Part shown: positions 1-1,275 of the stretch, one piece after another | How the letters are laid out: the number at the start of each line of letters is the position of its first letter | Numbering within the stretch: position 1 is the stretch's first letter | Sequence record: PV340574.1 | Origin: Escherichia phage PhiR63_2 | Reading direction: 5' to 3' (one strand) | Length of the DNA stretch: 48,138 bases | Made by a program: the position numbers and the translations under genes | The notes under the pieces: generated by a model | The model's database searches: none | Told to the model about the DNA's origin: nothing | The model's input: the letters and a program-made list of their open reading frames with translations, nothing else

Positions 1-19
1 GATCATCAAGAATATGTAA
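1..19 (+). other. icd: Prophage/host junction: last codons of icd (I-I-K-N-M-stop), stop at 17-19
   Basis: Positions 2-19 (atc atc aag aat atg taa) read IIKNM*, the Icd C-terminus as I recall it. GATCATC at 1-7 recurs at 48132-48138 at the end of an icd-like frame, so the window is bounded by duplicated att/icd sequence. Confidence 0.5.
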
Positions 20-43
20 TCACTACATGTGTTAAATATTGAA

Positions 44-70
44 ACGGGCGTATAACACGCCCGTTGTTTT
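44..70 (+). terminator. Rho-independent terminator hairpin just after the icd stop
   Basis: 8-bp stem ACGGGCGT (44-51) / ACGCCCGT (57-64), 5-nt loop, followed by TGTTTT. Confidence 0.5.
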
Positions 71-86
71 ATGATGATGTAAAATC

Positions 87-122
87 TTCCCCAAAACTTT
101 CCCCAAAACCCTTCCCCAAAAC
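87..122. repeat. Three direct repeats of TTCCCCAAAAC (87-97, 99-109, 112-122); candidate Int arm-type binding sites
   Basis: Direct repeats seen in sequence between the att core and the int stop codon (133-135), the position of the P'1-P'3 arm sites in lambda attP. Confidence 0.4.
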
Positions 123-132
123 TGGCTATTTT

Positions 133-1275
133 CTATGCTGTTTTGATATCTACGATAATCCAGTCTTTACCACGATCATCATTGTATCGGTCGGTCATTT
201 TTCTGGATTTATGGCCTAACAACTTTTGCGTATCCAGACCCTGTTCCCGATATAACCGTTCTGACAGAGATCGCTGCTCATGAAATGTGGGCGCAGTTCC
301 TTGCTCCCATTTTATGCCACATTTTTCCCGGGCCTTTTTAAAAGCCGTTGTCAGAGTATTCGCAGAAACCTGGTCTCCTCTGTTTGCTTGAGAGGTAGTG
401 TGACGGTAATGGACCAGATATTTACTAACAACAGCATCCCTGCACTGAGATATAACTTCACGAAGGGTAATATTCAGAGCATCGCATTTCAGGTTAAGCG
501 GAATAGCAAGTTTTGAACCGGTTTTTTCCTGAGTAATGTGCAACATGTCGTCCCATATATCAGAGAATTTCAAATTGCAGATATCGCCTAAACGTTGTCC
601 AGTAACAAGAGCAAGTAGCATGCCGCATTTTAAATAGGGCTGCCGTCTGCTTACGCTGTCAAATATTGCCTGCCATTCGGGCAGTGACAATCTTTGGCGG
701 TTTACTCGATTTCGCGGTTGTTTTGTTGCCTGCGCTGGGTTAAATCCTGGCGGAACATGTCCTGCGTGTTGTGCTTCTTTGAAGACGTCGATCAACACCA
801 TTCTCACGACTTGCGCCATCCTGTTATGACCTTCAGCCTTTACAGCATCAATTATTTCGGCAATATCAAGTGCGGTAATATCCTTGAGGTGTTGCATTCC
901 ACAATGCTCACGGAAAAGACGAATGGGTTTGCCTTTTTGCCGATAGGAGTTGGGTCTTAGTTCATTATGTTGCAGCCTGTCCTCTTGGATAGAAATATAT
1001 TTATCAAGCCATTCTGTCACCGTAATGTCTGAGCGCCTGCCTTTCATTCTTTCCAGACGCTCATTGACGCTTAATATTTGTCTGGTACGTTGTTCAGCAA
1101 TAATGGTATTTGCTTCAGTAGCAACTTGTTTTGCTTCATTCTCATCAGTTCCTAAGCTATGAAAACGACCGGATAGTGGATGTTTGTATTGCCAATATAC
1201 CTTTCCGGTTCGCTTATCTAATTTGCAATATAAATTGGGTATAGAGATTTTGTGAGATCGGGGTCTAGCAGCCAT
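133..1275 (-). CDS. int: Tyrosine recombinase, phage integrase
   Basis: 380-aa ORF with the C-terminal catalytic region typical of lambda-family integrases (LGHKSRKMTDRY), adjacent to att and overlapped by an excisionase-like ORF. Confidence 0.9.
   Translation of the reverse strand: MAARPRSHKISIPNLYCKLDKRTGKVYWQYKHPLSGRFHSLGTDENEAKQVATEANTIIAEQRTRQILSVNERLERMKGRRSDITVTEWLDKYISIQEDRLQHNELRPNSYRQKGKPIRLFREHCGMQHLKDITALDIAEIIDAVKAEGHNRMAQVVRMVLIDVFKEAQHAGHVPPGFNPAQATKQPRNRVNRQRLSLPEWQAIFDSVSRRQPYLKCGMLLALVTGQRLGDICNLKFSDIWDDMLHITQEKTGSKLAIPLNLKCDALNITLREVISQCRDAVVSKYLVHYRHTTSQANRGDQVSANTLTTAFKKAREKCGIKWEQGTAPTFHEQRSLSERLYREQGLDTQKLLGHKSRKMTDRYNDDRGKDWIIVDIKTA

Follow-up and report, generated by a model that had tools for sequence, protein, structure and literature searches.

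A lambda-like prophage predicted to lie in the 3′ part of icd through a phage 21 integration module

The phage attachment site (attP) of lambda is 240 bp long and is laid out as P1 and P2, H1 and H2, the core, H′, and P′1 to P′3. Phage 21 and e14 share another target, in the 3′ part of the isocitrate dehydrogenase gene icd. For phage 21, Wang and colleagues reportedly placed the minimal attP at 366–418 bp in 1997; its outer limits are said to include the outermost repeated dodecamers and its homology to icd to amount to 209 bp. How e14 replaces the 3′ end of icd is summarized in a review (PMC6379469), and the genome announcement of phage 21 does not discuss attP (PMC9119081). Here we describe the attachment region of a 48,138-nt stretch of DNA from Escherichia phage PhiR63_2 (PV340574.1), which at its full length is called the window below. 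The region occupies both ends of the window and comprises icd sequence, a terminator hairpin, three direct repeats and, directly after these, the integrase gene int. The reference lysogen was strain UTI89, whose identity to the window over positions 1–1500 is 100%.

For phage 21, the combination of icd end, terminator and three repeats has been described before, and public records annotate it. The 1991 record M61865.1 is entitled 'isocitrate dehydrogenase (icd) pseudogene, excisionase (xis), and integrase (int) genes'. In OL657228.1 the corresponding positions carry an 'ICDH-like protein ... pseudogene', a terminator and attP subsites, with the remark that the 'integration site attP consists of 3 subsites P1P2P3; consensus YYTTCCCCAAAA'. 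What the present analysis establishes is the identity with phage 21, the parentage of the icd copies, the domains of the integrase (Int), and the extent to which the sites are conserved and co-vary.

We read the window as a lambda-like prophage that has the integration module of phage 21 and lies within the 3′ part of icd, and put the probability of this reading, which is drawn from sequence comparison, at about 0.9. Over positions 1–1500 the window is 99.1% identical to phage 21 DNA (OL657228.1 and M61865.1). Five substitutions separate the two within 1–135; they sit in the icd tail, in the spacer or just ahead of the hairpin stem, and none affects the stem or the repeats. The int gene (133–1275, minus strand) encodes a heterobivalent tyrosine integrase of the lambda type, with 377 of 380 residues as in phage 21 Int. 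Its arm-binding domain (PF09003, Arm-DNA-bind_1) covers residues 1–71 (E 1.8e-28) and its catalytic domain (PF00589) residues 200–367 (E 8.9e-24). The product of the excisionase gene xis (1265–1501, minus strand; PF07825, E 6.7e-6) matches phage 21 Xis at all 78 residues. In genomes 100% identical to the window over 1–1500, a complete icd coding sequence (CDS) abuts window base 1, so that the module stands directly 3′ of icd.

The int-proximal attachment feature is an ordinary and very common element. Of 5426 complete E. coli genomes, 1612 contain the module with a coverage of at least 80%, and among the matches listed the features beneath it are integrase, excisionase and icd in every row. 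The icd–ycgX locus is uninterrupted in 2898 genomes.

We then compared the two copies of the icd 3′ end. Bases 1–19 of the window (plus strand), GATCATCAAGAATATGTAA, encode I-I-K-N-M and a stop codon, and the 416-codon icd CDS annotated in UTI89 and in other genomes 100% identical over 1–1500 ends at base 19. At the opposite end the window carries an icd-like frame that terminates in GATCATC, and a partial isocitrate dehydrogenase pseudogene is annotated at the right attachment site (attR) in both UTI89 and Combat2C1. The left (attL) and right sites of UTI89 can be aligned from TGCTGCGCC to GTTGTTTT, over about 215 bp, with identity at 206 of the first 214 positions. This block of homology between attP and the bacterial site (attB) starts at TGCTGCGCCATATGGG, spans the icd stop codon and the terminator and ends at GTTGTTTT. 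Its distal 70 bp are window bases 1–70 (plus strand), after which attL and attR diverge. Window base 1 lies 145 bp past the start of the attL copy, the first 145 bp being upstream of the window, and the last window base is the GATCATC position of the attR copy.

The parentage of the copies was determined in UTI89. We built a synthetic attB in which the UTI89 attR copy is preceded by 400 bp of the strain's icd from ahead of the block and followed by the flank on the ycgX side. This sequence was 100.0% identical over 1050 bp to the uninterrupted icd loci of strains SF-166, SCU-122 and 19AR1321. Eight differences, distributed across the block, separate the attL copy from the attR copy. The attR copy, being identical to the uninterrupted loci, is therefore the displaced host original, and the attL copy, including window bases 1–70, is therefore supplied by the phage, as it differs from the host allele. 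Given this parentage, exchange is placed within the 16-bp TGCTGCGCCATATGGG at 47987–48002 (plus strand), which lies to the left of the first polymorphism. Identity of attL and attR starts here and the next base is polymorphic; the attL partner of these 16 bp lies 145 bp upstream of window base 1. Positions 47987–48002 are thus predicted to contain the strand-exchange (overlap) region and to be the true right boundary of the phage DNA. Exchange in this interval makes 48003–48138 (plus strand), the last 136 bases, host DNA: a displaced icd 3′ end, resembling the icdC pseudogene, that is cut off by the window end at GATCATC. Core position +11, which in K-12 is C in attL and T in attR, is useless for narrowing the 16-bp interval because it is polymorphic among uninterrupted hosts too.

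These results agree with the initial annotation of the window in most respects. It had the window open on the last five icd codons, beside a lambdoid phage integrated in the 3′ end of icd as phage 21 and e14 are, and the adjacency of a complete icd to base 1 bears this out. It had also proposed that the phage supplies a replacement icd 3′ end, which is what the two UTI89 copies indicate, and the alignment to an uninterrupted icd locus that it recommended identifies TGCTGCGCCATATGGG as the core and attR, in UTI89, as the host-derived copy. Two of its points stand in part. GATCATC is indeed present at both ends, but the 7-bp identity is an artefact of the window having been cut inside the ~215-bp attL/attR duplication and marks neither a core nor any other biological landmark. 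Likewise, the right end of the 48 kb does hold an icd-like frame, but its last 136 bases belong to the host and not to the phage. For annotation, the prophage limits are accordingly 145 bp upstream of the window on the left and 47987–48002 on the right. The icd frame of such lysogens is a host–phage chimera, which bears on typing schemes that use icd, a multilocus sequence typing locus, and on the calling of prophage boundaries.

The UTI89 attL copy (L001, 1856–2070) and K-12 icdC (L006, 1115 onward) have four diagnostic bases in common in the first 70 bp. The resemblance between a UTI89 attL copy and the host-original allele of K-12 icdC suggests that icd 3′ alleles have been shuffled between phages and hosts.

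The hairpin downstream of icd belongs to the same block. A terminator scan found it at 43–65, where a 9-bp stem, six pairs of which are GC, closes a 5-nt loop and GTTTT comes next; together with the T run at 66–70 it forms an element of 43–70 on the plus strand that we interpret as a predicted Rho-independent terminator of icd. The fold of 1–135 has an energy of −26.4 kcal/mol (z = −3.87), and none of 200 shuffled sequences was as stable. The host copy at attR and uninterrupted loci have the identical 23-nt hairpin; what the phage carries within the attachment homology is therefore a copy of the native icd terminator. All of 30 related phage-borne copies have a 9-bp hairpin about 25 nt past the icd stop codon; all nine pairs are kept, with compensatory changes in six of them, which supports selection for termination of the reconstituted icd. 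A search of Rfam gave no match in the attachment region of the window.

Three direct repeats follow the terminator. The 11-mer TTCCCCAAAAC occurs exactly three times in the window, at 87–97, 99–109 and 112–122. Allowing one mismatch gives six matches against 1.0 expected, a number reached in none of 100 shuffles, and one of the additional one-mismatch matches, TTCCCCAAAAT, lies at 47858–47868, at the far end of the window. The relation between the two ends is clearer with the 12-mer YYTTCCCCAAAA, which has four exact matches in 48 kb. Three are the P′ dodecamers TCTTCCCCAAAA (85–96), CTTTCCCCAAAA (97–108) and CCTTCCCCAAAA (110–121), all on the plus strand; the first is a subsite in OL657228.1 with the consensus above, the second is given by both the repeat search and that annotation, and the third ends 11 bp short of the int stop codon. 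The fourth, again CTTTCCCCAAAA, is at 47856–47867 (plus strand) in the P arm, where its TTCCCC starts 129 bp before TGCTGCGCC, in the same place as in phage 21. The four matches flank the core in one orientation and are all at the window ends. Free phage 21 DNA contains all four sites within a span of 397 bp (OL657228.1, L003 1225–1621). Three lines of evidence, namely the arm-binding domain of Int, the fourth copy in the other arm and the conserved spacing, support the assignment of the repeats as putative arm-type Int sites.

In OL657228.1 only the int-proximal dodecamers are labelled, as 'attP'. The fourth dodecamer (L003 1225–1236) and the crossover region, which in that record is the start of the icd pseudogene, bear no label.

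The P arm also contains candidate sites for integration host factor (IHF). AATCAAACGGTTG at 47887–47899, about 100 bp from the core on its distal side, and TATCAGCGAGTTG at 47954–47966, core-proximal at −33, both match the consensus on the plus strand. The pattern WATCARNNNNTTR has five matches in 48 kb, two of them in the 130-bp P arm. These two sites are candidates by consensus and their positions are conserved in e14. A second P-arm site, comparable to lambda P2, was sought at up to two mismatches from the dodecamer, and the only further match in the arm was 47855–47866, which overlaps the site at 47856 with a shift of one base. At two mismatches the dodecamer matches 19 times across the window against 16.4 expected, which is chance level.

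A scan with one genome per species gave 80 loci with Int relatives of 51–100% identity. In 49 of the 80, spread across Enterobacterales, the icd 3′ end lies 60–180 bp from the int stop codon, and these formed the icd comparison set. Three tandem repeats, spaced at 11 or 12 and then 13 bp, are found between terminator and int in about 42 of the 49. The automatic repeat caller recognized 39 of these; it mis-scored L022, L025 and L076, each of which has three repeats when read by eye. The repeats fall into classes that track signatures in Int residues ~5–35. Loci with TTCCCCAAAA repeats have the N-domain signature RPRxH-K..NLYxKLDKR..YWQY and those with TTATCAAAA have RPRKN-N..NLYPLxSRK..YWRY; TCTGCAAAA is paired with RPRKY-N..GLSCYTDAR..YWRY, and CAGTAAAAT with RPRKH-N..NLFCFxDPR..YWQY. 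Possible further variants, CTACAAAA and CTCCAAAA, come from single loci, and a later classification puts the CTCCAAAA locus with TCTGCAAAA.

The initial annotation had described three direct repeats that look like P′ arm-type Int sites, and had asked whether related attP sites lack them. The repeats are where it placed them and are retained in most of the related icd loci, so that the proposal survives this check, and their putative role is in keeping with the phage 21 record and the Int domain. Its clean terminator hairpin is equally real, at 43–65, but is a copy of the host icd terminator rather than a separate feature of the phage.

Several loci of the scan merit separate mention. L033 and L034 are both icd-associated int loci of Providencia alcalifaciens BIGb0506 (JAOQNJ010000001.1) and lie ~13 kb apart; in L034 an Int truncated at its N terminus adjoins TTCCCCAAAA repeats. 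The pair may be a rearranged tandem array. Providencia phage PSTCR8lys (MW057859.1, L087/L088) and loci L030–L032 have arms and an N-domain of the TTCCCCAAAA type and no icd fragment near int, which points to a different core target. L007 (USAL01000018.1, 'uncultured Sutterella sp.') and L009 (Vagococcus sp.) have Int–att loci that are 100% and 82% identical to the module described here, each with an icd 3′ end; as both assemblies are labelled with non-enterobacterial taxa, these are probably contaminating or mis-binned contigs.

Alternative readings of the core, the repeats and the hairpin can be set against these data. The 7-mer common to both window termini could itself be the att core. The crossover would then fall at the 3′ end of the homology, the phage would give no more of icd than its final five codons, and the icd-like stretch of 150 bp at the right end would be the phage's own copy; indeed, over its first 127 bases, counted from TGCTGCGCC, the right-end copy does not differ from phage 21 attP. 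However, identity between the two sites extends over ~215 bp, starting 145 bp before GATCATC and running 63 bp past it, and attL and attR differ on both sides of the motif. Moreover, the UTI89 attR copy equals the uninterrupted allele (100.0% over 1050 bp), including at four diagnostic sites upstream of GATCATC, and the CAGC/TTCA cluster of the right-end copy is host-type, unlike that of phage 21. A GATCATC core is thus extremely improbable, and we rejected this candidate on the ground that the UTI89 attR copy is the host allele and the attL copy departs from it on either side. The core is best placed in TGCTGCGCCATATGGG. As for the repeats, which are A/C-rich and tandem, they might be a functionless product of slippage or be bound by something other than Int, for example Xis, Fis, IHF or a transcription factor that acts on int, and a spurious open reading frame (64–219) passes through them. 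They are not coding, because their 12/13-bp period is no multiple of three. About 42 of the 49 loci, which come from many genera and have diverged in their flanks, keep the spacing, the repeat sequence changes together with the Int N-terminal signature, a copy of the same sequence stands in the other arm at a distance that is base-exact between the 21-type and e14, and the architecture is that of lambda, with three tandem sites beside int. Arm-type Int sites account for these features, and we consider any other role of the repeats very unlikely.

The hairpin, finally, could serve the phage by terminating int transcripts convergently or by acting as their processing site, in the manner of lambda tI/sib, its role at icd being incidental. 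In keeping with this, int is transcribed toward the hairpin and ends 68 bp away, and the A-rich stretch ahead of the stem would give a partly T-rich tail on the minus strand. The terminator scan, however, lists the site for the plus strand alone and lists no minus-strand terminator for int at the hairpin. The hairpin also matches the host's own icd terminator exactly and falls within the host-homologous block, and the hairpins of related phages resemble icd terminators across loci, always ~25 nt past the icd stop. A sib-like discrimination between phage and prophage states would not operate here because the hairpin is linked to int in both states. A dedicated phage function is therefore unlikely, if less so than the alternatives for core and repeats, and we retain the interpretation as an icd terminator.

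Some observations weigh against the picture of a 21-type module with host-derived attR. The parentage of the icd copies was established in UTI89, the reference with 100% identity over 1–1500, and the right end of the window has a best genome match of 99.9%. The sole difference from that match is at 48057, where the attR copy of the window is unlike both the uninterrupted STEC299 icd allele and the Combat2C1 attR copy; its base is that of phage 21 and not of the nearest host allele. Base 48057 may therefore reflect some gene conversion between icd copies. The strict IHF consensus was not found on the P′ side in a search of 1–135 and the icd homology. Finally, locus L033 combines an Int N-domain of the 21 type with TTATCAAAA repeats, the sole mismatch to the rule that relates repeat and N-domain.

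The arrangement suggests how integration and excision would proceed. On the P-arm side, the attP of ~397 bp would begin with a single arm-type Int site, after which come two IHF-like sites. The core would lie at the left edge of the ~215-bp copy of icd 3′ end and terminator, and the P′ arm would present three tandem arm-type Int sites with the end of int directly after them. With IHF bending the DNA, Int would connect the TTCCCCAAAA dodecamers to the core and exchange strands within TGCTGCGCCATATGGG, at cleavage positions that we infer. Integration would join the 5′ part of host icd to the phage-borne 3′ end and terminator (bases 1–70 and the 145 bp upstream) and leave the host's own 3′ end as the attR pseudogene at 48003–48138. 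Since the 5′ part is joined to both a 3′ end and a terminator, icd would remain intact and be properly terminated in the lysogen. Xis, encoded beside int, would direct the reverse reaction on excision.

The element is a textbook example of insertion into a gene of an essential pathway by a phage whose spare 3′ end and terminator keep that gene working. The textbook picture is neither overturned nor extended, and the one addition is the series of repeat and Int N-domain pairs across Enterobacterales, a by-product that is possibly new and could serve studies of integrase specificity. More tentatively, the icd-targeting integrases could form a natural specificity-swap series, in which the geometry of attP stays fixed (P site at −129; three P′ sites, spaced at 11 or 12 and then 13 bp, ~231 bp from the core) and the arm repeat has switched at least four times; we think this proposal somewhat likelier to fail than to hold. 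If true and unreported, it would make a DNA-recognition code of the arm-binding domain readable from co-variation, and if true it would explain how phage 21 and e14 share attB without cross-excision.

Elsewhere in the prophage, four adjacent genes near the attR end (42620–46069, minus strand) resemble the sitABCD metal ABC transporter and encode a ZnuA-family periplasmic binding protein, an ABC ATPase and two ABC-3 permeases. These genes look like cargo of the prophage, carried at the position of the lambda 'b region'. A gene for a 380-residue Gram-negative porin (15919–17061, minus strand; PF00267, E 2e-151) looks like lambdoid cargo of the lc/nmpC type. Two Rfam families score above their gathering thresholds: the Hfq-binding small RNA STnc490 at 12356–12479 (plus strand, 146 bits) and the lambda cIII thermoregulator element at 5212–5270 (minus strand, 88.5 bits).

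Among described systems phage 21 is the closest. It shares with the window the target gene icd, the sequence of the P arm and the position of the dodecamer in it, and the hairpin stem and three P′ dodecamers are the same. Its icd copy differs at a few synonymous sites from the phage-supplied copy in UTI89. The remainder of the window prophage is unlike phage 21: it is 48 kb long as opposed to 42.9 kb and, unlike phage 21, has the porin gene and sitABCD-like transporter aboard.

The e14 element of K-12, with attL at icd and attR at icdC, uses the same attB and has the same ~215-bp homology including a terminator hairpin, although the sequence of its hairpin differs from that of the 21-type by compensatory changes. 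Its arm repeat is TTATCAAAA(C), whereas that of the 21-type (window and UTI89 attL) is TTCCCCAAAA(C). The geometry is nearly the same in the two. The first P′ repeat begins at +233 from TGCTGCGCC in e14 and at +231 in the 21-type, and the three repeats are spaced by 11 and 13 bp as against 12 and 13. The P-arm copy lies 129 bp ahead of TGCTGCGCC in both, the e14 repeat there being TTATCAAAAC. The IHF-like sites are likewise in register, AATCAATGAGTTA in e14 corresponding to AATCAAACGGTTG at about −100, and TGTCAGATAGTTA to TATCAGCGAGTTG at −33. Outside these elements the P arms of e14 and the 21-type are only 40% identical. The e14-type integrases are ~60% identical and have a different N-domain signature, and e14, unlike the window, has ymfD and ymfE between the P′ arm and int.

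The comparison with lambda shows the same plan with different parts. Lambda Int has arm-binding and catalytic domains of the same families as the window Int, and the window resembles lambda in the three tandem arm sites beside the end of int, in the overlap of xis with int and in the presence of arm and IHF-consensus sites in the other arm. The arm-site sequences are dissimilar and, unlike lambda, the window has one clear P-arm site only and no strict IHF consensus on the P′ side. The window-type attP is ~397 bp long as compared with 240 bp in lambda because the ~215-bp host-gene homology is interposed between core and P′ sites. Its target is the 3′ part of a protein-coding gene, whereas that of lambda is an intergenic site.

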